A DNA stretch of 63,913 bases, filler included, from Folioceros fuciformis (lineage: Eukaryota): assembly GCA_049999805.1 (NCBI GenBank). It is 5 parts of 5 records of this genome, joined end to end, with 100 filler letters (N's around TTAATTAATTAA, not from the genome) between each part and the next. Parts side by side here need not be neighbours in the genome. Positions count along the whole stretch, not along the records: positions 61,374 to 63,913 come from JBNGIO010006387.1; 4 more parts are not named here. The stretch is one strand, 5' to 3'. The notes below the pieces were generated by a model that was not told the DNA's origin, made no database searches, and worked only from the letters and a program-made list of their open reading frames with translations. Shown here piece by piece: positions 21,689 through 63,913 of the stretch (position 1 is the stretch's first letter; the number at the start of each line of letters is the position of its first letter). Position numbers and translations under genes: made by a program.

Positions 21689-22408
21689 AATTGTAGGATT
21701 TTGCAGCGCTCTTGCTCAAACAGGCTGGATTTGGGAGCTATCTAGAGAAATTTGCTGAGCCTTCCCAAGAATCAAACTCAGGCGAGCGCTCGTACGGGAG
21801 ATTGAGTGGAGGCCTCTATATGCAGCAATTTCGGCCCGAAAAAGAGTGCCCCACATCGCCAGCTACAGGGCGCCCCAGATCGCCAGCATCGGAGGAGCAC
21901 CCCAGCTCGCCTGGTGCAGGGCGTGCCGGATTGTCCGTGGAGGGGAGCGGCAGATCCTCCTCCAAGGGGCACACCCGTGCCCAAACGGCGTCCCAAAACA
22001 ACAACTTAAGTTGTTGTTTCGAGCCTCCATACCGAAACGACAACTTAAGTTGTCGTTTCGGTGAAGGGGGTTTTTTCCCCCTCCCAATGGGTGTGAACCT
22101 GGTTTATTCGGGCACCAGTTCAGTCCGATGCCGGTTCACACTCGGACCCCCTCTTCTACAACTTCTTGCCTGACAGCCAGCAAGCTCTGGAGAACTCTTG
22201 TGTGAAGATCGAGCTTGCCTCGACACCCCCTCCTCTTGTCGACCACTCCTCGGCACTCCTGGACAAGCTCCAACTCATCGCTGAGTATTTTGTGGATTTG
22301 ATCTACCGACTCCGCCGCTTAGTAGAGCCTGTCCAAGATTTCTCACTAGCCCCTTGACTACTAGGACGTTGGTGGCACATGTGCTAGGAGGACACTAGAA
22401 CAAGTTTT

Positions 22409-22897
22409 ATGACCTCAGCTTACAGAGACGTGGTTAGTCAGCTTGTTGAACACTTTAATTCACTTTCAATTAACCCTCCAGCTTCCATGGCCACCAGCAC
22501 AATCGTCCCAATACCCACAGGATCTATGCCAACATTCACCGACCATATAAAGGAAAGTGACCGCTTCAACGGCCAGCGTTATCCAGTATGGCAAGTGCAA
22601 ATGAAGTCGATCTTGATTGGCCGTGGTGTTTGGAAAGTTGTCGATGGGAGCCATCCCAAACCAGACCCCACTGCAATCCCTCCTCCTTCTGCAGCCGACA
22701 TTGAGAAGTGGGAATATTTAAACGGAATTGCAGTGGCGCTCCTTATCTCTAGCTTGGACTCGAGCTTAGTGCCGAGCATCGAGTTCCTCATAGAGGCCCC
22801 CTCCATTTGGCACCAACTTTCCAACACTTACAATGTGAACAATGTCTTGACACTCTACAGCGTCATACAAGAGTTCAATGCACTTAAGATGAAGGAG
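22409..22897 (+). pseudogene. Copia gag, 5' part (interrupted by an insertion)
   Basis: KESDRFNGQRYPVWQVQMKSILIGRGVWKVVDG...EFNALKMKE; the frame resumes after 27189 as ADTVAAHTSKFRHLR. Confidence 0.92.
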
Positions 22898-25800
22898 TGT
22901 GAACGAAAAAAACTTTCGGAACCCCCATTTTGAGCGACGGAATGAGCAGGTTGTGATTTTTTTTGTGAAGGGATCGGCGAATCGGCTTAGTAGGTAAATA
23001 AGACCAGGGTGTTTATGCCCAAAGTCCCTCTTGGGCTTCGGGGTTTGGGGTGTAATGGAGACCGGGACAAGGAGGGGGAATGAGCGAGTGCCTCCTTGGC
23101 CCTCAGGTCATTGAGAACATTAAGGACCAGGTCTGTAGGTAGGTGAGTGGGGTATGTCCTTGGCCTTTGGTGGTCCGGGGCCCCTTAGGTCTCTATATAT
23201 GCTAAGAAGACAGAAGAGTTCCGAGCCCGAGCGTGAGGGGAGGAGGATAGCCAGGATGAGGTCGCGGCCTGAACTGATCCTTGAATCAGCAGCCTCTATA
23301 CAAGAGGGGGGACCTCCTGTCCCCCGAATCGACCTACTCCTGTGGCCAAATATGGAGCACTGGAGGGTCAGGGCAGGAAAGTTGGTGGCAGAGCTGGGTC
23401 TGACTTTTATGACCTAGAAGTGGAACCATGCAGCACCTCAGCTGGTCAGGGAGTGTGCCCTGAGGCTAATAGAGCCTGTACACGAGGAGGGGATCAGAGG
23501 CAGACCCCAGGAATGGAACCTGGAGTTAATCAGGAGGGTCTACGGGCGCGACCAACAGGAGGAAGGGGGACTGGTGCTGGAGTCCCTGAAGAGGCGTAGT
23601 GGAACGGGAGCCGCGGAAACGCTGCTCAAGGCAGGCACGAGAAAGGAAGCGAACGAGTGGCTGGTGCGCGACATGGCAAGTCCCCAGCTGTTGGGAATGG
23701 CTAAGTGGTTCCTGAGCTTCTTCCAGGTACGCAAACAGGATTATCTGTCCGATCAGATGCTCCTGTTTGTGCATGAAGTAGTGAAGGGCACCAAGATTGA
23801 CGGGGGGAGGATTTTATACACCAAGATGGATGAGGAGAGGCAGAACTTGATCCGACCCACCCCTGAACCTTCTATGATTTCCCCGTTTCTAATCCATCTG
23901 TACAGTTACGCTAACCTGGTCACTGAGCTAGAAAGGCTGGCCTCGCTGCACCTATGGAAGCCAGTTCGCGATGTGAAGTGGAAGCCCGCCAAGCCAGCAA
24001 GGGCGGCCTCCAGCAGTTGGGAAGCTGACAGTGGGAATAGCTCGCAGGAGGAAACCCAAGTCAAGCCCAGGAAGAGGATGGTGCCACAAAAGAAGACTCT
24101 TGCCAAGAGGAAAAGGACCAGAGGACAAAGTGTGAGCATGCAGACTGATCAGGAGGAAGGGGGGACAGCCCTGGAGCATATGGGTCAGCAGGAGGCAGAA
24201 CGAGAACCAGCTGTCAAGGGAATCAAGGACCGAAGGTTGGAGGAGCAAGGTCAGCGTGGGACAAGACCCGAGGAGCCACCGGATCAAGTGATGGCAGCCG
24301 ACACAGTTTCCTCCAGACAGGAAGATAAGTTAGGGCTCGTTTCAGCACAGGAGGGTTCCTCAAGGTGGAAGGACATTTTCAGGTGCAGGCCTCAGAGACA
24401 TAGGTTGCAGGTGGGGGACCTGGACAAGTTGGGAGAATTCCTGGGCAGACAAATCACGACGAGAGGAATGGGCACCGGAGGGGTGCAGGAGGTGGACCTA
24501 CCCGGGCTGGCTGCTGTGATGGTGTAGGCCCAAGCAGACCTCCTGGATCAGGCTACAAGGGCCCTGACCTGGTTAAGTGTACAAGCGGAGTGAGAGGCCG
24601 AGGCTTGGGGGAAGGAGGAGAAGGCTCGTGAGCGAGAGGCTAAAGCAAGGAGGCAACTGGCGGAGTCAGAGACGGCGCGGCAACTGCTGGAGGAGAAGCA
24701 GCGGGTTCTGGACAAGGAGAAGGCTCAAGCTGAGGAAGAGGCGCGCGAGGCGAGGGCTGAAGTGCAGGCGCTGAAAGAGAAATAGGGGACCCTGCTAGCT
24801 CAGGTGAGGGAGGCTCACGAGACTAATCTGGAGATGCAACAGGAAATGGCCAGGGCACAGGAGCTGGAGATAGTCATTGTGGAGCAGGCTCAAAAGTTGG
24901 CTGACAGATTCAAGCGGGAGCGGGATGAGGCCAGAGAGAGAGTGAAGGGGAAGAGCAAGGCTGGGCGTCCGAGTCAGTCGGCGACCTCGGTAGCAGAAGG
25001 GGCTACCACTAGCCGAACCAGAGGAACGGTAGTCGAGGGGACTACCGGTAGTCCGGTAGTTCACGGGACTACCAGTAGTCGGGTAGCCGACGGGGCTCCC
25101 GATGGCCCAGCAAGGCCCAGGATAGCTGAAGAACCAACCCTGGAAACAAAGGAGGAAGCAGTAGGGGCCTGCCCCTAGGCGCTACAGGAGGGTGACCCGT
25201 ACCAGGAGGATAGAGCCGGAGGAGGCAACAGCTGGGCAGACAGAGAACCTTCAGGTACCCCAGCAGGAGGGGGAGCGGGCAACCCGAGGTAGCCCAAGGG
25301 AGGACGGGGTAAGCACCTCTGTTATGACAGAAGGTCGGATTGTGCTGCAGTATGAGGAGGAGGCCTCCTATGTGCCAGGCCTGTATGTAGAAGGGGCCAA
25401 AGTTCTGAAGCTGTTTCTGTATGTACGTATGGGCATAGGAGGGACGCGGGGCTACGTCCTACAGTTGAGGACGCACCTGGGACTCTACCACTACAACTGG
25501 TGGGTGACAAGACTGCCCCACTGCTATGCGGAGGCAGTTTTGGAGAAACTGGCGGAAGAGGAGGCCCAGCGCTGGGTAGAACGGGGGCCTGTGGCTGTCC
25601 TCAACAACCAGAGAAGGAGGAGGAGTGGTGGACCACAGTGGCGGGACCCACCTGCGCCGCCAGCCAGGTCCAGCAGCAGCAGCAGTGATGTGGAGATCCT
25701 CTGGGAGGATCTGCCGGACCAACGGAGGGGCAGAAGAGCAAGAGGAGGGGCAGCAAGGGATGACACGCGAAGGCCAGGAGGAAGCCGTTAGCGGCGTGGG

Positions 25801-27184
25801 AAAGGGCGATAGTAAACATAGGCTAGAATAGGATTTTGTAGCGTGCTTTATTTGGACCTAAGTCGCTTAGAATTTAAGAGCGCAGCTCCCCTACCTAACA
25901 AACTTTATGGTGGGAAAAACTGCCATCACCGTGTACAAGAGGCCGGTTTGAAGGCCTAAGAAATTAGCAAGAACTAGCTGAACAGTCGACCTTGCAAGGA
26001 CTTAGCGATGGTCGTTGCTGGACAAGAGGTCTAGGCAAGCAAGCGCACGTAGCAACCTGAAGTGCGGGTGTAGGTGGTGGGCGCTCCGTGATCAGGTCCG
26101 GGGACGAATCAGGAGGAGGAGCCTCGCCGAGTGGGAGAGAAACTCCCTAGCTATCCTCGAGGTGGTCACGTGGGGTGGTGCAGGTGTTGGAGCCGAATCC
26201 GTGAGTGCAGAGTGGAAGGGACTCCTCTTCCCTTAGCTCCGGTACCTCACCATTCCTCAACGTTAATAGGAGCCCAGGAGGGGCATCGCTGAGAAAGAAG
26301 ACTGAAGAACCGGAGAAAGGAGAGTGCGGGAGTGCGCGTGTGTGAGAGGGAGGAGGAGCGAGTGGCCGAGTAGTGGATAAGAGCGAACGCAAAAAGGAAG
26401 CCAGAAGGAGTGGAGCAGGAAGTGAAGCGGAGTGGAAGTGATTCGACGAATGTTAAGACAAGCAGAATGTACATAGCGAACTGGTGAGTGGGGTAAGAGA
26501 GAACAAAGCCGGGGAAACCCCAGAGGCGAGGTGGGTAATGTGTGTGGGGTGCAACGAGACGTGGTGTGTATGTGTGACTGGTCGCGATGAGACTGGAGAG
26601 GCTGTGAAGAAGCTGAATTGAGACCGCAGGGGGTGTATCTAAGGTGTGAGATCACGCGGGTGGAAGGCGTCCAACAGATTGCTGCAGTTCATGTGAGTGT
26701 GCGCTTGTTTCTGAGGTGAGTGAGGCGGTTTTGTGGTGAACCAAGGAAGGGAAGCGCAAAAGGGGATGCGCGGGCCAGAGGTAATCAATCGGGTAGGAAC
26801 AACCCGTTGGAAGAGAAAATCCTAGAGAGAGGGAACTAAGAGAGAGAGAGTGGGACCCACGAGCGGTAGACCATCGGGCGACGGAGGTAGCCCGGTGGGC
26901 AACCAAGAGTAGTCCNNNNNNNNNNNNNNNNNNNNNNNNNNNNNNNNNNNNNNNNNNNNNNNNNNNNNNNNNNNNNNNNNNNNNNNNNNNNNNNNNNNNN
27001 NNNNNNNNNNNNNNNGGACGTGTGTGTGTGGGTCAGTCGAGCTTTAGGTGTTAATTGACTTTAGAAGCTAACTTGTGTAGTTTAACACAAATCATTCCTT
27101 TGGGATCGAATCCCAGAGCTACAACGACATAGAGGGCTTGTGTGGACCTCGCTGTACCCTCGGGTACCATATTTTAACCCCACA
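22898..27184. mobile_element. Nested TG...CA-bounded insertion (solo or collapsed very long LTR, probably Gypsy-type) with 5-bp TSD AGGAG
   Basis: Starts TGTGAACG and ends ACCCCACA; AGGAG at 22893-22897 and 27185-27189; excision restores the gag frame. Contains a 100-N gap at 26916-27015. Confidence 0.88.
23256..25791 (+). pseudogene. Disrupted retrotransposon accessory protein gene (putative plant-transposon-protein-like domain plus coiled coil) inside the insertion
   Basis: TATATA at about 23194 and ATG at 23256; segments ...GTKIDGGRILY...ISPFLIHLY, then a charged low-complexity region and an E/Q/R-rich coiled coil (about 24600-24950). Several stops and frameshifts. The family assignment is from recall only. 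Confidence 0.55.
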
Positions 27185-27189
27185 AGGAG

Positions 27190-30100
27190 GCGGACACAGT
27201 CGCAGCACATACCTCTAAGTTCAGACACCTTAGAGGGCAGTTGGCCTCTCTTGGGTCACTAATGACCGAGACCGACGCTGTTGCTCAACTGCTAATGAGT
27301 CTGCTGGCCTCCTAGCAACACTTTGTCACTAGCATGATGTTGGTTTCAACTCGCGGCATCCCTGGATCCACCTCCTCTATGGCAGTGGAGGAAATCATCA
27401 GTGCCCTTTACCAACATGAACAAAGCCGCCTCAATTCTGTAGGAGGGTCCAAGCCCAAGGTAGATAAGGCACTCGCTATTCGTTTTAAGCCTAGGAAATT
27501 CAAGGAGAAGTAGGCAACTACCTCCAAGAGTGAGTCGACCTTAGCTCCACCTCGCCGGGCAGGTAACTGCAATTGATGCGGCACACCCGGCCACTGGGCA
27601 CGAGAATGATGCAAGAAAAAGGCCGGAGAGCTACAGAAGCTTGGCCTGCGCCAGACCGCAAGTGTAGCCGTCAAAGGCAAAGCAGTATCCGAGGAGGCAA
27701 AGACGATCAAGATTCTCACCGTTTGCCTCAATACTCAGCCACAACAAGACAGAGGGTGGTACCTTAATAGTGGAGCCACCGCTCATATTTGCAATGACAA
27801 CACTCTGTTCTCCAAGCTAGACACACGTCCTGTCAGAGAAAGAGTGCTCTTGGGAGATGAGTAGAACAAATCAAGTCTGCCCATACTTGGACAAGGGACT
27901 TGCAAGTCCCCCTTACCTGACGGATCAACACTTACCCTAGAGCCTGTGCTCTATGTTCCACTAATGGGGAAGAACCTTGTTTCCTTGAGTCAGCTCATGC
28001 AACACGGTACCCTGGAGATACTGTTCTCGCGTGACTCTTGCTGCTTTTACAGGCCAGCTAACTTTGACCTGTGCGTGTTAAAAGCCATCCTTCAAGATGG
28101 ACTTTATAAGCTCACCTTGGACAGCAGACAGGAGCCCCTTGTCTTCACTGCTGAACAGCCCTCCTCCAGTCTGGCTACCCTTTGGCACGCCAGGCTCGGT
28201 CACATCAACAAGAATAAGTTAATCTCAATGTCATCACAGGACCTATATAAGGAACCTATGCCAAGATGCTTCCGGCACCTTCTTGTTTGCGAGCCATGTG
28301 TGCTTGCAAAGAAAAAGGAGTCGTCATTCCCCAAACATGCGCAGAGGTCAGAGTCAGTGCTGGAGCTGGTGCACGCTGACATATCAGGAAGGATTCACAC
28401 TCCATCCCTGGGAGGGGCGATCTACTATCTCACCCTCACCGATGACTTCAGCAAATACTCGTGGACCTTCCCCATGCACCTGAAGAGCAACATATTATTT
28501 TAAGGATTGGCTACTTGCTGTCGAGCATCAGACAGGCAACTTGCTGAAAACCCTGCGAAGCAACAATGGGAGTGAGTTTGTAAACAATAAGTTTGATGCT
28601 TTCCTGCTCGAGCGAGGAATCCAAAGACAACTCAGTGTTCTTTAAACCCCGCAGCAAAATGGGGTTGCTGAGCGTAAGAACCAAACGCTCCTCTCCATGA
28701 CTCGAAGCATGCTCTTGTGGTTTGGTCTTCCGCAGGGCTTCTGGGCTGAAGCCATAGTGGCCGCCACATACATCTTGAACCGGATCATCACAAGCTCCGC
28801 ACCCGGCCGCACTCCATACGAGGTATACTAGAAACGAAAGCCAAGTATTCAACACCTGCGGGTTTTTGGATCAACAACTTTCGCCCACATCCCTGCACAA
28901 AAGCGGCACAAGTTAGAGGACAGGGCAAGGAAGCCGATTTTTGTAGGCTACATTGAATCTACCAAGGCCTACAAACTCGTAGACCCTGAGACCTACAAAA
29001 TCACCCTTGCACGGAGTGTTACCTTCATGGAGCTTGCTAGGCCAACCTCAAAGGGAGCCGCCTCAGCCGAGGACCCAACTCCCCCTGACTCAGACCCTTT
29101 ATCAAGCTTCCCTCCGGAGGACGGTGACCCCCGCACTCTTGACATAGTGGATGCCGACTCGGATGTTGAGGACGGCCACCCACCCTTTCAGGACCTGCCA
29201 CCTGAAGACCATACTGGTGCTTTCGGTGACCCACCTGTCACCGCCGACAATGCTGACGGTGACTTGCTGCCCGCACCTGACATTCATGCCCCTGATGGAA
29301 CACCACTGGCTGCTCCACCACTTGTGTCGGACGGATGTGAGACGGCACCTACTAAGCTGCCTCTGCTAGATCCTACACCAGCTTCTGACCCTCGCTGCAG
29401 CACCCGTCACCGGCCACCGCTGTCCCAGTGGGCTGAGCCACCCTACCAGTCAATGGATTTTCGAACTGCTTTCAATTCCCTCTCCACTGCCTTGACCTCT
29501 TCCTCCTCTTTACCTGAGGAGCCAGCTACTCTGACCCAAGCACTCACTAGCCCCGAGTCCTCCCAGTGGCGGCTCGCAATGGAGGATGAATACCAGAGTT
29601 TGGTTCAGAACAAAACTTGGGAGCTAGTCGACCCGCCCCCTGGGAGGAAGCCCATCTCATGTAAATGGACATTCAAGCTAAAGTTGAATGCCCAAGGCCA
29701 GGTAGCCCGCTTCAAAGCTCGCCTGGTCGCTCGTGGGTTCTCCCAAGTTGAAGGCCTCGACTATCAAGAGACCTTTTCTCCTGTGGTACGTGCTCAATCC
29801 ATCCGGATTCTGCTTGCCCTTGCTGCTGAGCTTGACCTCGAGCTCCACCAAATGGACGTGAAGACTGCTTTTCTTTACTGCAATCTAGACGAGGAGCTCT
29901 ACATGAATCAACCTGAAGGCTATGTCAGCAAGCAACACCCAGGCAAAGTCCTAAGGTTGAGAAAGTGTATCTACGGCCTTAAGCAAAGCGGCCGGGTTTG
30001 GTACACCACCATGCACGCCTACCTCCTGAGTGTCTCTTTCACCCAAAGCACAGCCGACGGCAACGTATACAAGCTTTCTCGAGGCCCCCATTTTTTGGCC

Positions 30101-31143
30101 CTTGCTCTGTATGTTGACGACCTTATTCTTGCAGCAAACAACTCCGAAATGCTAGCAGAGGTCAAGTAACTCCTGAGTGCTCGCTTCGAAATGAAGGACA
30201 TAGGTGAACTCCAATTTTGCCTTGGCATACAAATCCTTAGCAACAGGACAGAAGGAAGATTGGTCATCCACCAACTGAAGTACATCAACGAGATACTATG
30301 AAAGTTCAAGTTGGATCAAGCCAGGCTGGTATCCACTCCTTATGCCGTGGGCACTAAGCTCAAAGCCGACCTGTGCCCACATACAGAGGAGGAAGCCAAA
30401 GAGATGCAAGGGATCCCCTACCATCATGCCTTAGGTAGCCTCCTCTTCGTCAGTGGATGGACAAGGCCAGACATCCAATACTCTATCTCCACGGTATCCC
30501 AATTCCTAGAGTCGCCTGGCAAGGCACACTGGGCTGCCGTCAAGAGGGTGTTCCGCTACTTGAAGGGAACCCTAACATATGGGCTTGTATACCAAAGTGT
30601 AGGAACATGCAAGCTCTCACTCACTGGTTATACGGATGCCGACTGGGCATCTGATCCCGACTCAAGGAAAAGTTTGAGTGCACATTGCTTCCTACTATCC
30701 GCAGCCGCAGTGAACTGGAGCTGCAAGAAGCAGACCTCCATAGCACTCTCTTCCACGGAGGCCGAATAGAAATCCCTTACAGACGCCTCCAAAGAAGTTG
30801 AATGGGAAAGGGCTTTTCTATCTGATATAGGCCAAAAGCAAGATGAGCCCACACCCCTTCACTACGACAACATGTCAGCCTTGGCACTAATCTCCAACCC
30901 AAATTTCATGCCAGGACAAAACATATAGAGATTCAGCACCACTACATCCACAACGTAGTGGAGCGTAAGGTGGTACAAGCTGGCTACGTGCCCACAGAGG
31001 AAAACCTAGCAGACCTTTTGACAAAGGGCCTGCCCAAGTCGAGACACTACCAGCACATGCAAAGAATGGGACTTGTGGACTACTCACCCTACCTCTCTAT
31101 CGACCAAGTACAAGGGAGGACTCACCTGACAGAGGGAGCATGA
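27190..31143 (+). pseudogene. Copia gag(3')-pol of element A: zinc knuckle, protease, integrase, RT, RNase H
   Basis: LWHARLGH, LELVHADI, QNGVAERKN, ARFKARLVARGF, QMDVKTAF, LYVDD, YTDADWA, IALSSTEAE; multiple in-frame stops. Confidence 0.95.
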
Positions 31144-31196
31144 CTACTACTTAGCTCTTGACTGAAGAGTTAGGTTATGTCTCACTTAAGAGGGAG

Positions 31197-31415
31197 TGTT
31201 AAGAATAGGGTTCGATTAAGTAACCCATAACCCTAGTCATCAATCAATTGAGTTAGGTTAATCTAGGAGTTACCTCAAACAGACACATCCCTAGCGAAGT
31301 GGTGCGACTAGCACCTATATAAGAGACACCTATCCTGTATTTTTTTATCATGCTAAATAAAGTAACATAGCTTAAGAACATAATGTTTTCTCTACTTACT
31401 AATAGGAATTTATCA
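31197..31415 (+). repeat. 3' LTR of element A (219 bp)
   Basis: Preceded by the PPT and followed by TSD TTTGC. Confidence 0.95.
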
Positions 31416-32099
31416 TTTGCCATGTTTGCGCACATGTCTCATGCTCTGTAGCGGACTGCCACTTCATTGACACATTCATCCTCCATGCATTGTGGGATCG
31501 TGTGCACCGTGTTCACGATCACTTGTGTGCGCCGTGTTCACGATCGCTTGCTCCCTACTACGTTATTGTCCTTAGTATAAATCGCATATTTACACATTAA
31601 TGATTGATTATTATAAGCACCTTTTGTTCATGAAGGTCGAGATCATTTCTTACGATCTGTAAATTATCTGCAAAGTCAGAGACAGGAATGCCCACATCTC
31701 CGAACCTCCAACTCGTGAACAAACTGAGGAAAAAAGACAGGGTCTTGTCGGGCAGCTAGTGGACATTGTCAGAATGCTAAACAGGCTCAAGGAGGTGGAC
31801 TTTGACAAGGTTTGAAAGACAGACATACAGATGATTAGGTATGTCCCTCACGCTTCATCCATATGATCCTGTGTGTTTTTTTAGTTCAAAAAATTGTAAC
31901 AGCTGCAAAAAACTGATTGTTGTTGCTTGTGCAGCTTAAATCATCTAGGAGAGGGGTGGTGGAAGCTTGTTGGCAAATTAAACCACCTGGCTGTTGGTTT
32001 GAAAACATGTGCTATCTGTTGTTCACAACAAGTTCTTGAGATAATGGTTATTAAAATAGACTTGGATGCCACATCCAACCCCCTCCAAAAACCAGATAA

Positions 32100-42992: not shown

Positions 42993-44475
42993 NNNNNNNN
43001 NNNNNNNNNNNNNNNNNNNNNNNNNNNNNNNNNNNNTTAATTAATTAANNNNNNNNNNNNNNNNNNNNNNNNNNNNNNNNNNNNNNNNNNNNATACAAAT
43101 CTCGTGGGCCTGATATTTGCTTAGACGATGAGCACTTTTGTCTCGGCTTAGGACATATGGTGGGGAGAAACCATGTCATGAAATGTCTCCCCCTCAACAG
43201 GTATGTGTTTTTCAAACACCTGTTTGTTTCACTCAAAAAAAAGCTAAGATGTGTGAAGAGTCTTATTAGAGCTAGATTACTTAATTATAGCATATATTCA
43301 TATTATCTCCTTGAACAAAAAAGCATGGATGTACAGCTACCTCTTTTCTACACAAATATGCAGTTTTTCTTGTATTAGTTTGGACATATATAACAATCAG
43401 ATATATTTTAATAATTATTAATATATAGTTTAAAAATATAATTCATTTCATACACAATATTACCTCTGTTCTATAGATTGAGGATCCTACAATACCACCA
43501 CTTAGTTAGAGCCATTCGCTTAATGCCCCCACATCACTTATCCCCCAATTATTGAACTCATGTCTAGACTTTGCAAACGTCCACATTAAGACAGTCGGCT
43601 AAGATTATGACAGCCCCTTCAAATGACCCTTCGAACAAGACCAAGCAGATCATTGCCCACAAGTAACCAACATCAATTTTTCATCACCCATATCTACCCA
43701 ACTTCACATCCATCTTCAAGCTATGGAAAGCCAAAGCAACGGACACCAAATCACCTACAGAGCCTACAAGCCATCGACAAACCAAAGTGCACATGAGTCT
43801 TATACAAACCAAAGTGCACATAAGTCTTCGCCCAGACCACAGTTGCCTTCGCCCTGGAATCCACACTTACCTTGCATCCTCATCCTCCCTATGTTGTATG
43901 TAAAGTATATGTATAAAGTATATGTATATCATCCCTTTCCAGGGCAAGCTCCTGTCCGAAGAGCGAGCTATGGGCGGGACATGACCAGTTGGACGTGGAC
44001 GGAAAATCATAAAGAATGATTTTCTGCCATACTGGGCCCAATCCTTCAGTAGAAGTACACCAAGGCAAAGTACCTGATCTGACGTACATGATGCCATAGG
44101 ATATCGTAGATGCAGACCCAGGATGACCTAGGAGCGGTGATAGCGGACCTCTGACACCGGTGACGACCACGGTATACCTTAGTCCTCCATACTCTCATAT
44201 TCCATTCCTGGTCAGACGTCTGGGCAATGTCAGTTGTGTTCTTTCATTGGTGTTGTGGCCTAGACCAGACTCGGCATATCATCGAAAGTCTGGGAGGTCC
44301 TCAGTGGAGATGCTGAAATCACGTCCACGGCACGACAAACCTGTCCTGTTCCCTGTAAAACGGGATGGCGGTTGGAAAGCTTGGAAGAAGAATTGGAGTC
44401 GGCGGGGCCCCCTTCGCTCCTGTTCCCTCCAGTGCTGCTTGGATTGGCCAGATTTCGGTGTAACCCGCATCTACT

Positions 44476-45625
44476 ATGGAAGAGGTCTCCTCGCAATCCC
44501 TTCAACACCGTGGCAGCGAGCAGCAAATCGTCGTTCAAATGAGGCCAGGCGAAGGGGAGGACAGCTACTTGAAGAATTCCTCCTCGCAGTCCCTCATCCT
44601 TCAGGAGGTGGAAGCGCTGCTGTGGCACGGGATTCGTTCTGCCTCCCGCATTCCAGAGACGGGAAATGCCGGCAACGCGCTGCGCGTAGCAGACCTAGGA
44701 TGCGCCACGGGCAACAACGCCATCAGAGCTGTGGACAAGCTGCTGGAAAGTCTGGCATCCCTGTGGGAGTCCAAGTTTGGTTAGCTTCAAGCGCAGCCCT
44801 TCCCCAAGGACGTTCAGGTTTTCTTCAACGACTTGCCCTCCAACGATTTCAACACCCTCTTTCGCAGCCTGCCGCTCTACGGATCTGGATCCAGGCGCTA
44901 TTTCGCATCCGGTGTGCCTGGATCCGCTGTTTCCCGCCTCGAGCATCCACGCTTTCACCTGCTTCACTGCGCTGCATTGGATGTCCCAAGTCCCACCCGA
45001 GGTCCTGGACAGGAACTCCCCTGCATTCAACTTTGACAGGGTGCACGTGCATGGCGCCAGTCCCGCCGTGGAGCGGGCCTTCACTGTCCAGGGTTCCAGG
45101 GATCTGACGGAATTCTTCACCAACCGAGCTAACGAGCTGGTACCTGGAGGGTTCCTTGTGCTGGCCACGCTCATCAAACCAGACGAGCAGCATGACCTGC
45201 AAGCACTCTGGCATTTGCTCTGGGACGCCTTCCACGAGCTAGCTGTGCAGGGTGTCATACCGTGGGCTCTCATTGAGACCTTCAACTTCCCCTTCCACTT
45301 GCCGAGCATCGCACTGGTGAGGCAAATTGTGGAGCAGGTAGGACTCTTCGACATCCACATCCTCCAATCCTGCGGCAACGTGTTCTACTTTCCTGCACGA
45401 AAATGTGAGGAATACCGAGCGGATCTCAGGAAATTTGCGAGGGACAGTGCCTTGTTCTGGAAGAGCATCTTCCTCTCATCCATCGAGGAGCACTTCGGTG
45501 GGGAGTTGAGCAACCTGGTGTTCGAGCAGTTCGAACACCTTGTTCGATCCCTTAATCTTCATGGTGCAAATGTGGACGATTACTTCACAGCAGATTACGG
45601 CGTTGCTCTTCTGACCAGGAAGTAG
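44476..45625 (+). pseudogene. SABATH carboxyl methyltransferase pseudogene
   Basis: Collinear with 48351-49517 but has TAG at 44782 and an 11-bp deletion near 44925 that destroys GSFYGPLFP and shifts the frame. Confidence 0.93.
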
Positions 45626-46239
45626 AGATCCCTGGTGCACGTGCCGCGGAAGGCCGCATTGGGCGTCGCTTGCGTCCGCCTCCACGCGAGGAATATAGCT
45701 TTACCGACACCTACACTCTCACAACCTGTCCAAAGTCTTCAGGGTTTGAATTTGAGGCTTATGCTATCCGAACAAAGGTTTCCATATTGCCGTGAAACAT
45801 TCTTTCCAAAGGTCGGCCACTTTGCTGCTTTGTTAGTCTTGAGTTTGAGATTTCATAGATATAGTTTGGGAGGGCGTGTTTTTATGGCGTTGATTAGATT
45901 TGTGTAAAAAAACAAATATTAAAAATCCTAGAACCCCCTTCAGAAAATTTTAGAACCTCTTGAGAAACAAGCACCATTACCACCTAAGTGAGCAAAAACT
46001 CTTCCATTCCGATCCAGGTCTTTGCTATGGAGCAAACATCCCTCAAAAACACAAGCACCATTGCATGAAGCCTCAAGCAATTGTCCACCTTTTATGGAGT
46101 CGCTTGCAAGACTTCTTCTGGGTTACTGTATCTCCGACCTTTTTATGTGGAAGCTTGCAAGACTATCTCCGACTGTGTGCGCTCCTGGCCCAGGTTCGCT
46201 ACTATCCAGTGGAAAATAATGTAAGGATTATTAGTAACG

Positions 46240-46310
46240 TGCACCGGCCGGGAATCGAACCCGGGTCTGTACCGTGGCAGGGTACTATTCTACCACTAGA
46301 CCACCGGTGC
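46240..46310 (-). tRNA. tRNA-Gly (GCC)
   Basis: GCACCGGTGGTCTAGTGGTAGAATAGTACCCTGCCACGGTACAGACCCGGGTTCGATTCCCGGCCGGTGCA: 71 nt, perfect acceptor stem, A and B boxes, T-run downstream. Confidence 0.97.
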
Positions 46311-48350: not shown

Positions 48351-49517
48351 ATGGCACTTGTCTCCTCGCCATCCCTTCAGTGCGATGGCAGCCGGCACGA
48401 ATTCGTCGTTCAAATGAAGTCAGGTGAAGGGGAGGACAGCTACTTGAAGAACTCCTCCCCGCAATCGCACATGCTTCAGGTGGTGGAAGCGCCACTGTGG
48501 CACGGGATTCGATCAGCCTCCCGCATTCCAGAGACGGGACATGCAGGCCCCGCCCTGCGCGTAGCAGACCTAGGATGCGCCACGGGCACCAACACCATCA
48601 AAGCTGTGGACAAGCTCCTAGAAAGTCTGGTAGCCCTGTGGGAGTCCAAGTGTGGCCAGCTGCAGCTGCACCCTTTCCCCAAGGACGTCCAGGTTTTCTT
48701 CTCCGACTTGCCCTCCAACGATTTCAACACTCTCTTCCGGACCCTGTCGCCTTCCGGCTCGGGATCCAGGGGCTATTTCGCAGCCGGTGTGCCTGGATCC
48801 TTCTATGGCCCGCTGTTTCCCGCCTCGAGCATCCACGCTTTCACCTGCTTCACTGCGCTGCATTGGATGTCCCGAGTACCGCCCGAGGTCCAGGACAGGA
48901 ATTCCCCTGCATTCAACTTTGACAGGGTGCACGTCCATGGCGCCGGTCCCGCCGTGGAGCAGGCCTTCGCTAGGCAGAGTTCCCGGGATCTGACGGAGTT
49001 CTTCACGAACCGAGCCACCGAGCTGGTACCAGGAGGCTTCCTTGCGCTGGCCATGCTCATCAAACCAGACGATCAGCCTGATCGGCAAGGAATCTGGCGG
49101 TTTCTCTGGGACGCCTTCCACGAGCTAGCTGTCCAGGGTGTTATTCCGCGGGTTCTCATCGAGACCTTCAACATTCCCTACTACTATCCGAGTATCGCAC
49201 AGGTGAGGCAATCTGTGGACCAGGTAGGGCTCTTCGACGTCCACATCCTCCAATCCTGCGGTGAAATCTCCCACCATCCTGCACACAAACGTCAGGAATA
49301 CCGAGCGGATGTCACCAAATTTGCAAAGGACGGTACTTTGGCCTTGAGGAGCATTCTCCAGTCATCCATGCAGGACCACTTCGGTACGGAGTTGAGCAAC
49401 AAGGTGTTCGAGCAGTTCGAACAAGGTATCAGAACCCTTAATCTTCAGCCTGGTGGAGAATATGTAGACGATTACTTCACCACAAGTTATGGTATTGTTC
49501 TTCTGACCAAGAAGTAG
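48351..49517 (+). CDS. SABATH-family SAM-dependent carboxyl methyltransferase (388 aa, intronless)
   Basis: MKSGEGEDSYLKNS..Q, VADLGCATGTN, FFSDLPSNDFNTLF, GVPGSFYGPLFP, ALHWMS, FNIPYYYPS. Confidence 0.96.
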   Translation: MALVSSPSLQCDGSRHEFVVQMKSGEGEDSYLKNSSPQSHMLQVVEAPLWHGIRSASRIPETGHAGPALRVADLGCATGTNTIKAVDKLLESLVALWESKCGQLQLHPFPKDVQVFFSDLPSNDFNTLFRTLSPSGSGSRGYFAAGVPGSFYGPLFPASSIHAFTCFTALHWMSRVPPEVQDRNSPAFNFDRVHVHGAGPAVEQAFARQSSRDLTEFFTNRATELVPGGFLALAMLIKPDDQPDRQGIWRFLWDAFHELAVQGVIPRVLIETFNIPYYYPSIAQVRQSVDQVGLFDVHILQSCGEISHHPAHKRQEYRADVTKFAKDGTLALRSILQSSMQDHFGTELSNKVFEQFEQGIRTLNLQPGGEYVDDYFTTSYGIVLLTKK

Positions 49518-56292: not shown

Positions 56293-56392
56293 NNNNNNNN
56301 NNNNNNNNNNNNNNNNNNNNNNNNNNNNNNNNNNNNTTAATTAATTAANNNNNNNNNNNNNNNNNNNNNNNNNNNNNNNNNNNNNNNNNNNN

Positions 56393-59300
56393 ATGTGCAT
56401 CAACATTGTGTTCATCAAGGTTGTCCTGATCAGCAAGTCCTAGAGCAGCATGCTGATCATCTTCATCATGTTGTTCATATTGAATAGGATTCTGGTGAAG
56501 AGGCTGTCCATGTAGATCAGCTGGGACAGCTGTTGGTACAACTAGCTGTGCACCAGATTGTGTGCCAAGTTGTAGAAGCTTATTCACAGCTGCATGATCA
56601 GTATTATCTGGTGACTCTCCGTCAGACTGAGGATAATGAAAGGCAACATCAGCAGGAACCATGTCCTCGAGCAATGGCCCTAGTGGAGATGAGCCTCTAG
56701 CATCGTTCCTTATTTCCTGTTTAGTCTGAGGGAAGACAAGTTCCTTACAGGTAGCACTCCTAGACAGGATGACCTTAGACGTGTCTGGATCATAAAGTTT
56801 GTACGCCTTGGACTCTTCAGAGTAGCCAATAAAAACCAGCTGCTTAGCTCTATCGTCTAACTTTCGTCTTTTGGCCTCAGGTATGAAGGCAAAGGCAGGG
56901 GATCCAAAAACCTTAAGGTGTGACAAACTTGGCTTCCTTCCCCAGAATGCTTCATAGGGTGTTTTCCCTGGAAGGGCAGAGGTCACCAATCTATTCAAAA
57001 TGTAAGTAGCAACTACTGCTGCTTCTGCCCAATACCTCTTAGACAGACCTGAGTATGATAACATGCTTTTGGTCATCCCCATGATTGTTTGATTCTTCCT
57101 CTCAGCGACTCCGTTTTGCTGTTGTGTGTAGGGCACCGACAGCTATCTGATGATTCCAAACTGCTGAAAGAGATCATCAAATCTGTGGCCAGTGAACTCG
57201 CCTCCATTGTCGGTTCAAAAACACTTGACCAAATGCCTTGTTTGGCGCTGAACCATGGGAATCCAGGAAGCTATCTGTTCATATACATCACTTTTCTGCT
57301 TGATAGGAAATGTCCATGCATATCGTGTGAAATCATCTGTCAATTTTAGGTAGTATTCTGCACCTCCTAACGACTTGACTTGGATCCTCCCAGCAATATC
57401 ACCATGGATAAGTTCAAGCACTTCCTTAGCACGATTGGGTGCTTTATTTTTAAAGGGCAGCTCTTTCTGCTTAGACAGAATACAAGAGCTGCATGCTTCT
57501 AGGTGCTTGAAGCAGGAGGGTAGTTTTTCCCTATACAAACTTGAGTTGGCCATGACATCTAGCTTAAACTTGTTGACATGACCTAACCTCGCATGCCAGA
57601 GGTTAGCTTGTGCATTGGATGTAGCAACTAGTGCCCTAACATGATGCTTAGAAACTGTGACCAACTGGTACAGATCATTGACTAGGATGGCTTTAGCGAC
57701 GTAGTTGTGAGGATCAGAGAGATTGTAGATATAACACTTTCTGTCCTCAAACCTAAAGCCATACTGCTGACTCTGTGCCACAACCCTAATAGATAGCAAG
57801 TTTTTGCTCATATCAGGTACATACAACACATCTTCAAGACGTAAGGATGCACCACCAAACAAGGTATGAACACAACACCACAGCCTTTTACCTCCACACC
57901 TCTTGAGTCCCCAACGTACACTGACTGTGGAGATGTCTGTCTGTGGAAGGTGGAAAAGAGTTGCCTGTTGTTGCAAACATGCGCTGTAGCACCAGGATCG
58001 ACAAACCAAGAGGAAGATGTTTCTATGTAAGAAGTTAAGCGCACAGTCATAACTGAGCTGCTACTTTTGTGGTTTGGGTGATTCGGAGAATTGGATTTGT
58101 CCTTTGAGGTGACATGTGCCTCAGGTCTGCTGTCCTTCTTGGCTTCACCTGCTTTCTTTTTCCGACAATCCCTTTCCCAATGTCCTGGAGTTTGACACCA
58201 GTGACAATTGCCTTGCTTTTTTGTAGTGACTGTAGCGGAGGTTGAGTGTTGAGGTGAGTTTCCCTTCTTACCCTTCCCCTTCCAAGGTCCTTTGCCCTTA
58301 GCTGCAAAAAGGACCTTCTCACCACGAAGACGAGAGCCACCTTGCTTGTGACGACTCTGCTCTTCTTGCATGAGTGCTCCAATGACAGCATTCAAGTTCA
58401 ATGTAGTCGGTTGACCACTAGAAGCTGCTTGATAGGCAGCATGAAGTGCTGTGTTCTGACTTGATATAAACGTCTGATAGGAAGGAGGAAGGCCGGTCAA
58501 CAGTTGAGCTACCATTTCCACATCAGTCGTCTTGGCCCCAAGCGCGGCAAGCTGTGCCCGCAAGTACCTCAACTTTGTGACGTAGGCTCCAACTAGATCC
58601 CCTTCCTTCATCCGCAGACTGTGAAAGTCACTCCTAACGTGGATAAAGGCACAAACATTCTGCACCTGGTACGTGTCAACAAGTTGAGTCCAAACATCTG
58701 CTGCTGACTCCAGGAAATCAACTTCGGAGACAGTAGTCTCATCCAGGCCTGAAAGTAAGATGGCAAATGCTATCTTATTGCCTTTATTCCACTTAGCAAA
58801 ATCATCTGATGTAGGCTGATTCTGTGCCGTGGCTGGGATGGTCGCAGGGTTGGGAATTGTCCCATCAACGAACTCCCATACATCCCTGGCATTGAGGTTT
58901 GCTTTCATTCTTGCTTTCCAGCTTTCAAACTGGGCAGGTTTACCATCAAACCTGTCCTTTTCTTTGAACTCTCCTGAATAGGAAGAGCCAAAAGATGTTG
59001 TTGGATTATTAGCCATGTTAATAGTTCCTATAGAGGCTGTTAGACCCACTGAAGGAGGTAGTGACGTCTGCTGTTGCAGGTATGCAGGCAATACGGATAC
59101 TGGAAACTGTGCTGCAAGTGACTGTAGAATATTAGCTTCTGAGTTTGAAGACTCGTCAACCTCACTTCTTGAATCTAGCCAAAAATGACTAGACATGAAC
59201 AATCGTAAAGCGAACCGGTAAATTACAGCACACAATGCTTCATTAGGTTAGAAACCTGTTCATGCTAGAAATGATATGAAACGTTACTATTAGGGCAGAA

Positions 59301-60464
59301 TGCCTGTTCACTAATAACTTATGGTGACAGGTGGCTACACCACCCAACCGTCAGGTTAGATGACGGTGGTGGTTGGTAGCTGGCTGTAGGCTCCCGATGC
59401 TAGGCACTGGCTGCTGCCCAGCGAAGGCTCTGGAGCATCCACCATCACTGAATTTACATAAGAAATTACGCCACCCATTATGCCTGTCTCTCTCGTTGAG
59501 GGGTGAGATCTGGCAATGAATCTCTTACTGTTGGGGGAGCACCCGATCTTGCAGACACAGAACCGAGGCCTTGAAAAGCTGCTGGCTAGGTATTCAGAGT
59601 CAATCCTTGAAAGGCAGCAAGACGGATCACTGCTCCTCCAACGTCAGCAAGGCAATCAGTGAACACGGTGATGTGGTTTTCAACACGCTGAATCAGGTGT
59701 AAAATTGAAGCTTCAAATGATGAACTTCTCGTGTGAAGTCCTGCTATAGCAAGTTCTTGAATAGAAAATCTCTTAGCAATTTCGATGCGTAAGCTTGCAA
59801 TCACTGAGAGTGGATTGTCTCGTCGATTTCCAGGTAGGTTTTCTCGTAGTGTTCTGTTGTTACTCCTAAGTTCAGCTTTTCACTGACTCCTATTAAGATC
59901 AGGAGTAGACTGTGAGTCAAAGAGCAATTCAGAACGTAAGCTAGGACGAAGGAGCAGTGTGTAGGCTGCCACTTCCTGATAGCTATCTGAACTTTCACTA
60001 TAAGGCTGACGCCTATCTCTTTGATTACATAAATTCTCAATAGCCCGCTGAGGACGATTGGAACGTCTACGAGTCATCTCGACGAGATTCTCTAGTGACT
60101 TCTAGTTGCATTGTTACTTAGAAGTTTAGAGTTTTTCCAGAATCTTTTAAACTAGTGCTAAGAATGTAGGGATTTTGATCCATTATACACACAACGTAGC
60201 CTACTCTACCTAGAGTGGGCTAGCTTATGTGTGTAATACGATCTTCAGCCCCAGCATGCTAGCACTAAACTAAACATGCTCTAATAACATGTAAATAAAT
60301 ATAGCGGAAGTGCTCTTAGACAAAACACACACGAAATGCACAAGAGCGAATTAATTAATAAAGCACAAAAGGTCTTTAAATACAAAACTGTGTGTAACCC
60401 TAAGTTACATAAATAACACTATTTAATTATAACCCAAGAGGAGGGTTAAATCTATTTACTAACA
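56393..60464 (-). mobile_element. Copia element C, 5' part (5' LTR 60290-60464, degenerate PBS 60278-60289, extra ORF, gag-PR-IN), cut by the linker
   Basis: LTR reads TGTTAGTAAATA...TATTTACA on the minus strand, followed by TGTTATTAGAGC; gag 57808-59235 with CHWCQTPGHWERDC; integrase motifs LWHARLGH and QNGVAERKN. Confidence 0.9.
59586..60077 (-). pseudogene. Extra ORF between PBS and gag of element C (164 codons, one internal TGA)
   Basis: ORFs 59880-60077 and 59586-59804 are in the same frame and separated by a single stop; basic N-terminus MTRRRSNRPQR and amphipathic C-terminus. Confidence 0.6.
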
Positions 60465-61373
60465 GGGGCACCCTTCCTGATCTGGGCGGTTGATGCGCAA
60501 TTGAGCGCGCCTCTACCATGCACCTGGGCGCCCTGGATGGGCGATCTCAGCCCTGGATTGTTCAGCAAAAATTGGACAGCGTTGTCCTGATCCTACACCA
60601 CCAAACCAGTGATCAACTTTTCTGGCTTTGCATTAAATTCAGAGACAATTTGAGGAGAGGAGCCACCAAATGGGGCGCCTGTATGTGTAGATGTTGCCTG
60701 GCGCCTCCTTTGATTATTCACTTGCCGAAATGATGGAGAGAAGATTAACAATTCTTCGTCACTTTCTTTCCATTCCTCGGCATTCGGTGGCTAATCTCTT
60801 GCAGGTGACGTGCTTAGGCACGTTGTTGTACAATGTCCTTCACGGGGTTGTGGAGCGCCTTCACGAAGTGCCGAACTCAGGCTTGAGTGGGAAGCAACTA
60901 TTTCATTGGTGCCATCTCTCCTAGTTCAGGCACTTGATTTTCTCTGCTAACGATTAGAGAAAGATCTTGAATGACCTGACATCAAATCGGTGTTGCTAGG
61001 ATGGCTTTCTGTCGGTGGAGTCCAGCCTTGATCTTGCAAAGTGTGGAAGAGAGCATCCAGCCAGCTATTGCCGAGAAGACGTTGTGTTCTCGATGAGGAA
61101 GAACGCCCTGTCCTCCTATCATTGCTACTGCGATGCGTACGACCATGAGTTCGAACCCGATCTTCAACACTTCGTCTTGCTGAAGCTTGAGAGCAACGAT
61201 GATACCTTCCCATCCGTGAACTGGGAATTTTGTGGTGGAAGGGAGACTTGCAATGGATGGCTTCTAGAAAAAGNNNNNNNNNNNNNNNNNNNNNNNNNNN
61301 NNNNNNNNNNNNNNNNNTTAATTAATTAANNNNNNNNNNNNNNNNNNNNNNNNNNNNNNNNNNNNNNNNNNNN

Positions 61374-63587
61374 GGCTGCCGTTGGGGCTCACCTGCCTTC
61401 TTCTTACGGCATTCTCTTGCCCAATGGCCGGGGGTGCCACACCAATTGCAAGAACCCGGTCTTTTAGCAGAGGAGCTGGCGGAATCAGTTCGCTGTCCAG
61501 CTGAACTTCCAGGTGGGTTATATCCCCCTCTGAATTTTGCTTTGCCTTTAGAAAAGCGGGAATTCACAGCTAACACTCTTTCGGTTCTGTTCTTAGGAGC
61601 AGCACCGGAAAGAGTACGAGCCTGTTCTTCCTGGTAGAGTGCGCCGATGATGTCCTCAACAGTGGGGGCAGCAACAGCAGCAGCTCCAACAACAGTAGGT
61701 CGAACAGGGCCATTCTGAGCTGTGACAAAACTCTGATATGAAGAGGGGAGACTGATAAGAAGCTGGGATACAGCTTCGACTTCTGGCATCTTGTGTCCAG
61801 TCAGCGACGTGATCTGGGCTCTCAGATGTCGGAACTTGCTGGTATGTGTAGCTATCTTCTCTCCCTCCTTCATTTTCAAAGCATAGAATTCCATTCGCAC
61901 AGCTGATAAAGACATCATGTTAATGGAATGATATGTAGTCTCCAATTGATTCCAGATATCTTCAGCTGTATCGAGGAACTCTATATCAGGCACAAGATCA
62001 GCATCCAGGCCGTTAATCAGGAGAGCCATGGCAACACCATTGTGGTGTACCCACTTGGTATGTTGATCAGGATGTGTGCTTGGATCTGGTTTCCTAAAAG
62101 AGCCGTCAACACTTGACCAAACTCCTCGAGCAGAAAGGATAGCCTTGATCCTGACTCGCCAAACGAGGTAACCATTACCCTTAAACCGATCTTTCTCCTT
62201 CAGTTCTGAAGTGAAAGGCGCTGTGGCTGCCATCGAACTCATATCTGGATTTGCACTGGTAGGAGAAGTGATGGACATGGATAAATAAAAAAAGCTATAT
62301 GGAAAAGTGATTTACATATGACAGATAAGTATCCATGCCTGCGTTACTCAATTTCATGCTTTAATCTTAGGGACTGACCATTAGATACAGGAGGGGTAGT
62401 TGGGAAGGGTCAGCCAGAGGAGGGGATAACAAGGAGCTATGCCCTTCTCGTGCTGAACTTCTCAACTTCCTTTCCGATACTAGTGAACAGTTGCAAGTAT
62501 AAGCAAAAAACCCTAAAATTGACACCGTTTCAAAAAACTAAACTGAAAAGTTAGGGTATGAGGCCAACCGACATGTCCCTGTCCTGTGAACAGACGTTTA
62601 CAGGTGGACGAATCTGGTGAAAGCAAGAAATGCATTGTGAAAGGGCACATTGCCAATCACACCACTTCAGATCCTGGGAGGGGTTGCTCCAGCGCCAGGA
62701 TTGCTCCACTCGACAGCAGCGGAAATGCTCAGGGGGCATGGGCCCGTTGATCCACAGCAAGGTGAGGGCTGTCCATCTCAAGATCTCGCAGTCTTAGGTT
62801 CATCAACTGCAGGAGATCAGTCACGTGATTGATATCCTGCTTGATTTCCTGTTTGCAGTCTGAAATGGCTTGTTCTGAGTTGAAAATCAGGTTGTCAACT
62901 CTGTTCTTGATAAGCTCCTGATTTGTGAGCGCTAAAGACAGCACCTTCTCCGCACGAACTAAGGTGACCAATGCTCTGTCACTGGTTTCGTTCCTGAGTT
63001 GTGTGAAGTCTCTAACGGTGTTATCTTGTTGTTGTGGCAAAGGCTGCCTAGGACAGAAGAAAGATCCTTCAGCGCCGGGACTGAACAACAGATCTGGATT
63101 CTGTCCTCTCCTGCGACAGCGCTGCAGATACAGGCGATGAATCTCTTGATTTTGATGTAGTACATAAGCCGGTCCAGGAGGAGTGCTGCGCTGAGCCACA
63201 AAGCGCCTTAGCCAGAGGGCAGGATATTCGTGTTCGTAGAGGTCCAGCAACGTGTCAATAGGCAAAGTTGCTGTTTGTCGTCGTGGGTGACCTTCCTTAT
63301 TAGAATTCTTTGGAGGTCCACCACACCGCCTGCCTCTAGAACCACCCTGCCTCGGCATTCTGAGGAGATCTTAGCAGGAAACAGAGCATGGCTCTGATAC
63401 CATATAAAATATCGAGTAGGAGCGAGAGTGCATGAACTCTTGTAGTTGGATTAAAATGAATGCAATACAAAAAGTGTTTATATACTACGCACATGACTGT
63501 TCGTGTTCACAAACCTAATCTATATAAACCCAAAACATAAAAGAACCACGTGTTTAGGTTTAACCAGAGAAAAGCCTATTCGTAACA
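61374..63587 (-). mobile_element. Copia element D, 5' part (LTR about 63403-63587, PBS 63391-63402, extra ORF, gag)
   Basis: Perfect PBS (gctctgatacca on +); gag starts at 62278 and is open to the linker, with KEKDRFKG and CNWCGTPGHWAREC. Confidence 0.92.
62729..63358 (-). CDS. Intact 209-aa extra ORF between PBS and gag of element D
   Basis: ATG about 33 nt after the PBS, same strand as gag, Arg/Gly-rich N-terminus, heptad-like C-terminus, about 450-nt spacer to the gag ATG. Confidence 0.75.
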   Translation of the reverse strand: MPRQGGSRGRRCGGPPKNSNKEGHPRRQTATLPIDTLLDLYEHEYPALWLRRFVAQRSTPPGPAYVLHQNQEIHRLYLQRCRRRGQNPDLLFSPGAEGSFFCPRQPLPQQQDNTVRDFTQLRNETSDRALVTLVRAEKVLSLALTNQELIKNRVDNLIFNSEQAISDCKQEIKQDINHVTDLLQLMNLRLRDLEMDSPHLAVDQRAHAP

Positions 63588-63913
63588 GACTCCCCTCACA
63601 CCAGAAGAGACAGAGGAGATGGCAAGGACCCCATACAAGCATGCAGTGGGGACACTGATTTACTTAGCAAACGTCTCTCGACCATACATAGCATTCTCGG
63701 TTAGTTTGGAGTCGCAGTACCTGCAAAACCCAAGTCCAGAACACTGGAGTCATGTGAAAAGAACCTTCGGGTATTTAAAACAAACTCCCACACAGGGCAT
63801 TACGTATGCAAGAGCTGAAGGGAGTCTACTTACCTTGGAAGGATTCTCATACTCGGATTGGGCGTTAGACTTGGATAGCAGGAAGTCGCTGTCTGCATTC
63901 GTGTTCATGTTAG
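63588..63913 (+). mobile_element. Copia RT/RNase H fragment into which element D inserted
   Basis: Translates as PYKHAVGTLIYLANVSRP...HWSHVKRTFGYLK...SDWALDLDSRKS. Confidence 0.88.

Follow-up and report, generated by a model that had tools for sequence, protein, structure and literature searches.

The end of a 63,913-nucleotide stretch of the Folioceros fuciformis genome (GCA_049999805.1; five parts of the assembly joined end to end, hereafter the window) raises the question of whether a long terminal repeat (LTR) retrotransposon of the Ty1/copia superfamily can carry an additional gene ahead of gag. In the element concerned, element D on JBNGIO010006387.1 (positions 61,374 to 63,913), a sense open reading frame (ORF) of 209 codons lies between the element's primer binding site (PBS) and gag, and a preliminary description of the locus proposed that it belongs to a lineage of Copia elements sharing such an accessory ORF. 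Our analysis favors a narrower reading, to which we assign a probability of about one half: D would be a copy of a low-copy Ty1/copia family, with a leader that holds a family-private sense ORF of the extra ORF (eORF) type known as eORF-5'F, and not a trait of the wider lineage.

Element D lies on the minus strand and is a Ty1/copia LTR retrotransposon, with a Copia-type gag and a Met-type PBS directly after the LTR. The 5' LTR (63403..63587, 185 nucleotides, starting with TGTTACGAATAG) contains TATA-like boxes at 63526 and 63484, read from the sequence. Its extent was deduced from its terminus, the PBS and the contig depth; no second LTR for D, and thus no 3' LTR, is present in the window, D's contig stopping within gag at 61374. 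The pattern at the LTR terminus is common to the element at 20712, and the ORF has a lower summed contig depth than the LTR part (bins from 63329). The PBS, TGGTATCAGAGC (63391..63402, 12 nucleotides), has no mismatch and is of the initiator tRNA-Met type; we take this 12-mer to be the complement of the 3' end of the plant tRNA-iMet, for which no gene (nor any other tRNA-Met gene) was found in the window. A tRNA-Met PBS is used by most Copia groups (Neumann et al., 2019; PMC6317226).

The ORF (62729..63358, minus strand; ATG, 209 codons and a stop) starts 32 nucleotides behind the PBS, and its predicted product is referred to here as P0001. It is kept apart from gag by a spacer of 450 nucleotides (62279..62728) in which all three frames are closed and which holds 8 more in-frame stops, so that the leader from PBS to gag (62279-63390) measures 1112 nucleotides. 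The visible part of gag (61374..62278) comprises 301 codons with a CCHC knuckle and matches Retrotran_gag_2 (PF14223) at 8.1e-29 (100.7 bits, cut-off 27), while its zf-CCHC match of 20.5 bits is slightly below the cut-off of 20.8. The gag frame is open up to the contig end, where a joint (N44-TTAATTAATTAA-N44, 61274..61373) cuts it and leaves the remainder of D outside the window. On its other side, the LTR adjoins a Copia pol-like fragment on the opposite strand (63588..63913, plus strand), which is probably the target that D inserted into; by eye, an ORF within it (63619-63912) resembles the Copia linker between reverse transcriptase and RNase H, and the 98-residue piece has no match in Pfam. 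The coordinates and distances of the preliminary description, namely the exact PBS, the 209-codon ORF and the 450 nucleotides to gag, were correct throughout.

Since both its length and its codon-position composition exceed chance, the ORF is taken as coding. An ATG ORF of at least 209 amino acids was obtained in one of 5000 dinucleotide-preserving shuffles of the 1112-nucleotide leader (mean 66, largest 223), and allowing for the three leaders examined in the window the chance of such a length is still approximately 1 in 1000. The GC contents at the first, second and third codon positions (GC1, GC2, GC3) are 0.60, 0.41 and 0.49, similar to the 0.59, 0.41 and 0.50 of a large pentatricopeptide repeat gene in the same window. 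The resulting GC1-GC2 difference of 0.196 was reached by 4 of 596 random shuffle ORFs of at least 100 codons (mean 0.032, standard deviation 0.068), and it is highest in codons 137-209 (0.37). The spacer, read in the frame of the ORF and gag, has a difference of 0.04 and is not coding-like; the frame closes exactly where the coding-like composition ends in the leader. Stops abound in the two other frames of the ORF region, and likewise in the spacer. No long antisense ORF was found opposite the ORF (the longest has 71 amino acids), nor is it an artefact of tandem repeats, as only a weak 27-nucleotide array of 2.2 copies was detected. A second frame inside the ORF is open for 80 codons (63201-62959, minus strand), with a GC1-GC2 of 0.02 that is not coding-like. 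Judged by these sequence properties, the ORF appears somewhat more probably than otherwise to be a real coding sequence, present or recent. What the preliminary description said of D itself is borne out by the PBS, the gag match and the shuffle tests: D is a Ty1/copia element in which an intact, coding-like sense ORF separates the PBS from gag.

The predicted product has a mass of 24 kDa and an isoelectric point (pI) of 9.2. An Arg/Gly-rich N-terminus had been described and is real: residues 1-30 contain 8 lysines or arginines, and residues 1-60 have a pI of 10.8. Residues 118-209 are acidic (pI 5.5). AlphaFold2, run on the single sequence, predicts a long helix at 118-196, for which the 10-residue means of the predicted local distance difference test (pLDDT) are 60 (121-130), 75 (131-140), 88-97 (141-190) and 74 (191-200), so that confidence is high for most of its length; two short helices (34-55 and 63-83) are predicted at low confidence. 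No transmembrane-like or hydrophobic segment was found in P0001, the best 19-residue Kyte-Doolittle mean being 0.84. A homodimer prediction for residues 112-209 gave a score of 0.05 (mark 0.32), which we count neither for nor against self-association. The C-terminus had also been called coiled-coil-like; this is a fair term for the long amphipathic helix that is predicted there, and for nothing beyond it.

Relatives of P0001 are nearly absent from the collections searched. No Pfam family was matched at E values up to 1, the PDB fold search gave no match at E values up to 0.001 (best 0.3), and the best hit of the PDB sequence search, DisA at E 0.12, is not meaningful. Borna disease virus P24, the first match in the ESM Atlas (0.80), reached a recognition score of 1608 against a mark of 2300 and was equaled by a third of shuffled proteins; it is therefore a lead only. 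In a collection of 5.8 billion proteins, a single relative of P0001, P0002, was found in the near length range, and there was no match among shorter (5 candidates) or longer proteins (908 candidates). A HMMER pass over 1.84 billion representatives again returned P0002 as the sole match, and an exact look-up showed that the sequence of P0001 itself is absent from the protein collection. Pattern searches yielded 166 stretches for P0001 and 70 for gag in metagenome contigs and 7 matches in viral contigs, none of which was confirmed. Within the 64-kb window there is no second copy of the protein or its DNA, and Rfam gave no match over 61374-63913 at E values up to 1. On sequence grounds, the ORF is an orphan. 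P0002 is a protein of 134 amino acids and a singleton on one contig of 1170 nucleotides. The two share the AUG, and over residues 1-73 of P0001 they are 64% identical (47 of 73 positions). The best-conserved block, PIDTLLDLY.HEYPALWLRRFVA, together with the residues just before it, keeps 26 of 28 residues in an alignment read by eye. That the 5' part is better conserved would be compatible both with a domain of the protein and with an RNA signal close to the PBS.

The preliminary description placed D in a group of three elements with ORFs in an equivalent position. Three Copia elements in the window, including D, have a visible PBS, and their kinship is confirmed: their gags share 38-52% identity, and the motif KE.DRF.G, which had been pointed out, is present in four gags of the window. 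The gag of D is 40% identical over 313 amino acids to the gag at 59196 and 52% identical over 124 amino acids to the gag at 22409. All three elements have LTRs of 172-249 nucleotides, a Met-type PBS and leaders of 1.08-1.44 kb, and their LTRs start with the pattern TGTTA..AATAG (two with TGTTAsKAATAG and the third, by eye, with TGTTAGTAAATAG). The element at 20712 (20712-31416, plus strand) is a full-length Copia of approximately 10.7 kb, interrupted by a single assembly gap; the LTRs of this element (20712-20960 and 31197-~31416) are ~97% alike, the polypurine tract AAGAGGGAG precedes the 3' LTR, and behind an exact PBS at 20961 follows a leader of 1436 nucleotides (20973-22408, plus strand). 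Its 5' LTR contains a 27-nucleotide tandem duplication that doubles the TATA-box region, its gag frame is broken after 174 codons, and two adjacent palindromes of the type AACAACTTAAGTTGTT were seen by eye in the leader at 21990-22070 (plus strand). The element with its gag at 59196 (minus strand) has an LTR of 172 nucleotides (TG...CA), a PBS with two mismatches by our own reading, and a leader of 1082 nucleotides (59197-60278, minus strand). The fourth gag, at 41.2 kb, has no visible leader, as the pol of another element ends 500 nucleotides upstream.

The ORFs of the two other leaders do not resemble that of D. The longest ones in the element at 20712 encode 129 and 117 amino acids, and 127 of 2000 shuffles reach 129; the longest one in the element at 59196 encodes 65, which is reached by 405 of 2000 shuffles. 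In pairwise local alignments of the products of D and the two others, the scores were reached by 172, 408 and 338 of 500 shuffles. A C-terminal likeness of 66-70 residues that was seen by eye between leader segments was equaled by 799, 508 and 1527 of 2000 shuffles and was discarded, and no DNA similarity was detected among the three leaders. The shared long leader is thus real and may be a trait of this Copia group, while a gene common to the leaders is not demonstrated. Neither the ORFs of the two other elements as a shared feature nor a lineage-wide accessory protein in three elements is upheld by these comparisons, the other leader ORFs being within chance in length and dissimilar to that of D. 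Leader ORFs of 65-130 codons "in the same position" arise by chance in long leaders, and a shuffle control is needed before they are compared.

The copy number of the ORF was assessed with DNA sequencing runs, two of which are labelled with the same organism; these may be the source of the assembly and are therefore not an independent confirmation. One near-identical contig spans 61852-63432 and differs from D by 2 substitutions and 1 inserted base, all outside the ORF (at 62219, at 62558 and behind 62286); it ends at 63432, inside the LTR. The run contigs also carry short-sided joints, with sides of 20-26 letters. In run X1, the summed depth over the ORF is 37.6-47.5, compared to 37.6 for that one contig, which would accommodate approximately one additional partial copy of diverged sequence. 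Over gag, the bins have a depth of 126-315, i.e., 3 to 8 times more than the single contig. Because the depth over gag far exceeds that over the ORF, the gag of D belongs to a populous group, while the leader with the ORF is private to a small, low-copy family. A third run, X3, from the same sample (61835-63430) has a bisulfite-like appearance, with C>T at 242 and G>A at 264 places. Its contig across 63055-63430, a stretch that holds 47 CHH sites, differs at 45 of 90 C positions, and all 20 converted positions listed, out of these 45 changes, are CHH. Run X4, which was guessed to be RNA, yielded no contig over D; we count this neither for nor against expression.

The arrangement of AUGs in D bears on how gag could be translated. 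Counted from 63433, 14 AUGs precede gag, which rules out simple scanning, and the earlier suggestion that gag requires a non-standard access therefore stands. Starting from the likely transcript start after the TATA-like box at 63484, three upstream ORFs (uORFs) of 20, 10 and 17 codons come before the AUG of the 209-codon ORF, which has the context AGAATGC with an A at -3. Another 11 AUGs lie between this AUG (63358) and that of gag, whose context is weak (TCCATGT). As the 209-codon ORF and many AUGs come first, scanning ribosomes would rarely reach gag. By eye, no phase-matched donor and acceptor that would splice the ORF in frame to gag were found.

Under the favored reading, the genomic RNA of D would start in the short LTR. 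Once past three mini-uORFs (10 to 20 codons), the first long ORF that scanning ribosomes would translate is the one of 209 codons. The product would consist of a basic, probably disordered Arg/Gly-rich N-terminus, the short helical block PIDTLLDLYEHEYPALWLRRFVA, which is the best-conserved part in P0002, a Pro/Gln-rich linker and an acidic helix of 79 residues. By analogy with LINE-1 ORF1p or with the leader ORFs of Ogre and MDG1 elements, it might serve as a helper of the element's ribonucleoprotein (RNP), its basic N-terminus binding RNA and its long helix mediating self-association. Gag would then have to be reached via a spliced or shorter RNA, by reinitiation or by shunting, and the ORF would have arisen or been acquired within the D family. 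We hold the functional part, RNA binding and self-association, with far less confidence than the coding nature of the ORF.

Several observations weigh against the ORF of D being a gene of its family. One intact copy only was seen, and since the sole relative shifts frame, no copy shows conservation across the whole ORF. After approximately codon 73, P0002 leaves the frame and follows the other frame of D (29 of 64 residues identical), i.e., the second frame of 63201-62959 (minus strand), and ends at the same stop; this use of the second frame may be a coincidence. A conserved accessory protein, as put forward in the preliminary description, is not supported by this relative, its broken frame being the kind of outcome that the description itself named as refuting. 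Rather than constraint on a protein, the conserved 5' block might reflect an RNA signal that acts in cis close to the PBS. The AlphaFold2 model, a single-sequence prediction, has a mean pLDDT of 60.8 with 94 of 209 residues below 50, and the heptad pattern of the helix is merely moderate, with hydrophobic residues at 12 of 23 a/d positions at best. The conversion pattern in X3 points to CG and CHG methylation over the ORF and hence to a silenced copy. Finally, with 209 codons the ORF is shorter than the 250-codon cut-off for eORFs, a threshold that was set for a survey and has no status as a biological criterion.

Among the alternatives, a captured coding fragment comes closest to the favored reading, although we consider it unlikely. 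A piece of a host gene or of another element would have been transduced into the leader and be carried passively, its frame still open since the copy is young. The coding-like composition suits any real coding origin, the ORF occurs in one family only and at low copy, and eORFs are concluded to have come from many sources (Neumann et al., 2019; PMC6317226). However, P0002 was the sole homologue among 5.8 billion proteins, 1.84 billion representatives, Pfam and PDB, the 64-kb window holds no second copy, and the ORF has its own AUG in good context right behind the PBS, which is kept in P0002. A lineage-specific host gene would be compatible with the absence of the exact ORF sequence from the protein collection. 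Slightly less probable still is a chance or decaying frame in a non-coding leader that yields no product and acts only as RNA, in packaging, dimerization or primer contacts. This would agree with leaders of 1.08 to 1.44 kb in all three PBS-bearing elements, with or without a long ORF, with the broken frame of the sole relative, with conservation that peaks in the 5' part closest to the PBS, and with the 14 AUGs before gag from 63433, which resemble other long retroelement leaders. The ORF length, reached in 1 of 5000 shuffles or approximately 1 in 1000 across three leaders, speaks against it, as do the independent codon-position signal (4 of 596 random ORFs) and the end of the opening exactly at the end of the coding-like composition.

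Two further explanations of the ORF are both improbable. In one, it is a working first gene encoding a basic-plus-helical RNP or anti-silencing factor, and the related long leaders are decayed or replaced versions of the same slot; if so, a Copia lineage would have evolved a two-gene 5' layout like that of Ogre and MDG1. The other, which we consider the least probable of all, is that of the preliminary description, a fast-evolving accessory gene between PBS and gag in three elements whose products have diverged beyond recognition. The related gags (38-52% identity, KE.DRF.G), the similar LTR starts, and the short LTRs, Met-type PBS and leaders of more than 1 kb in all three elements are consistent with it, and so is a 163-codon frame with a single stop in the element at 59196. 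Moreover, published eORFs of the same lineage are often unalignable, the eORF-3'F of SIRE falling into 19 groups (Neumann et al., 2019; PMC6317226). Nevertheless, the ORFs in the two other leaders do not exceed chance in length (127 and 405 of 2000 shuffles), their full products and C-terminal parts have no similarity beyond that of shuffled sequences, the leaders lack DNA similarity, and GC1-GC2 amounts to only -0.02 to 0.08 in the long ORFs of those leaders. The frame of the element with its PBS at 20961 would in addition need readthrough of 6 stops, despite LTRs that are ~97% alike.

In the remainder of the window, host genes are interspersed with Copia elements. An intronless ORF of 1393 amino acids (2862-7043, plus strand) was recognized by eye as PLS-type pentatricopeptide-like. 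It is followed by an L-type lectin receptor kinase (8645-10792, minus strand), kinase fragments (14856-18418, minus strand), two ORFs for SABATH-type carboxyl methyltransferases (44981-45625 and 48351-49517, plus strand) and a tRNA-Gly(GCC) gene (46239-46310, minus strand). The joints between the parts of the window (17583-17682, 42993-43092, 56293-56392 and 61274-61373) consist of N44-TTAATTAATTAA-N44, in which the central piece is a six-frame stop linker, and plain runs of 100 N occupy 12203-12302, 13383-13482 and 26916-27015. ORFs that cross joints or gaps, e.g., 12072-12707 and 12914-13603, are artefacts.

The predicted product of D can be compared with several known proteins. LINE-1 ORF1p is encoded by the first ORF on the RNA of a non-LTR element and combines a coiled-coil-type helix with basic RNA-binding parts, and the second ORF of LINE-1 is reached by unconventional translation. 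LINE-1 ORF1p differs in having RRM and CTD domains, and no sequence or fold match was found; the likeness to D is a functional analogy only. The position of the ORF is shared by ORF1 of Ogre elements (Ty3/gypsy, Tat clade): in these plant LTR elements, too, a sense ORF precedes gag, so that gag is not first. Ogre belongs to another superfamily and its ORF1 is present clade-wide, whereas the ORF of D is found in one family; Ogre eORFs encode the plant mobile domain PF10536 in 57% of elements (Neumann et al., 2019; PMC6317226), while P0001 has neither this nor any other Pfam domain. In the MDG1 group (Drosophila 412/mdg1), small sense ORFs occupy the same position between LTR and gag: sORF1 of ~110 amino acids, and sORF2 of 63-107 amino acids, a membrane FAST-like fusogen (PMC11952523). 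According to the same study, these sORFs depend on the main transcription start, and earlier work gave low non-synonymous rates. They belong to insect Gypsy elements, however, and the product of D, with 209 amino acids and no membrane segment (0.84), has no sequence relation to them.

The best-fitting category is therefore one that has already been catalogued. Neumann et al. (2019; PMC6317226) defined four classes of extra ORFs, including eORF-5'F, and reported extra ORFs of at least 250 codons in 582 Ty1/copia elements, where they sort into 45 groups without relation to one another. Any similarity to known domains was limited to 21.4% of eORF proteins. In that survey, the only clade-typical eORF named for Copia is the 3' sense ORF of SIRE. 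The ORF of D is likewise forward, upstream of the polyprotein and separate from it, without a conserved domain and unrelated to the eORFs of other families. Nor is it a product of tandem repeats, which by the definition of the survey have 3 or more monomers extending over more than 150 bp; the 27-nucleotide array in D has 2.2 copies. Extra ORFs may be located upstream or downstream of gag-pol, and presence in all or most copies of a family is a criterion of Vicient and Casacuberta (2020; PMC7264820); for D, one intact copy and one frame-broken relative were seen. The literature searches turned up no Copia lineage whose defining feature is a 5' sense ORF, although the supplementary tables of PMC6317226, in which eORF types are given for each element, may list such cases. 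The preliminary label "possibly undescribed" is too strong where the category is concerned.

Taken together, the ORF of D is a further case of a known heterogeneous kind, and for the present it enlarges a catalogue of dozens of groups by another unrelated extra ORF. If it is translated, D would be a rare instance of a Copia element in which another gene precedes gag on the RNA, and the route by which gag is accessed and the role of an orphan basic and helical protein for a retrotransposon would become the questions to ask.

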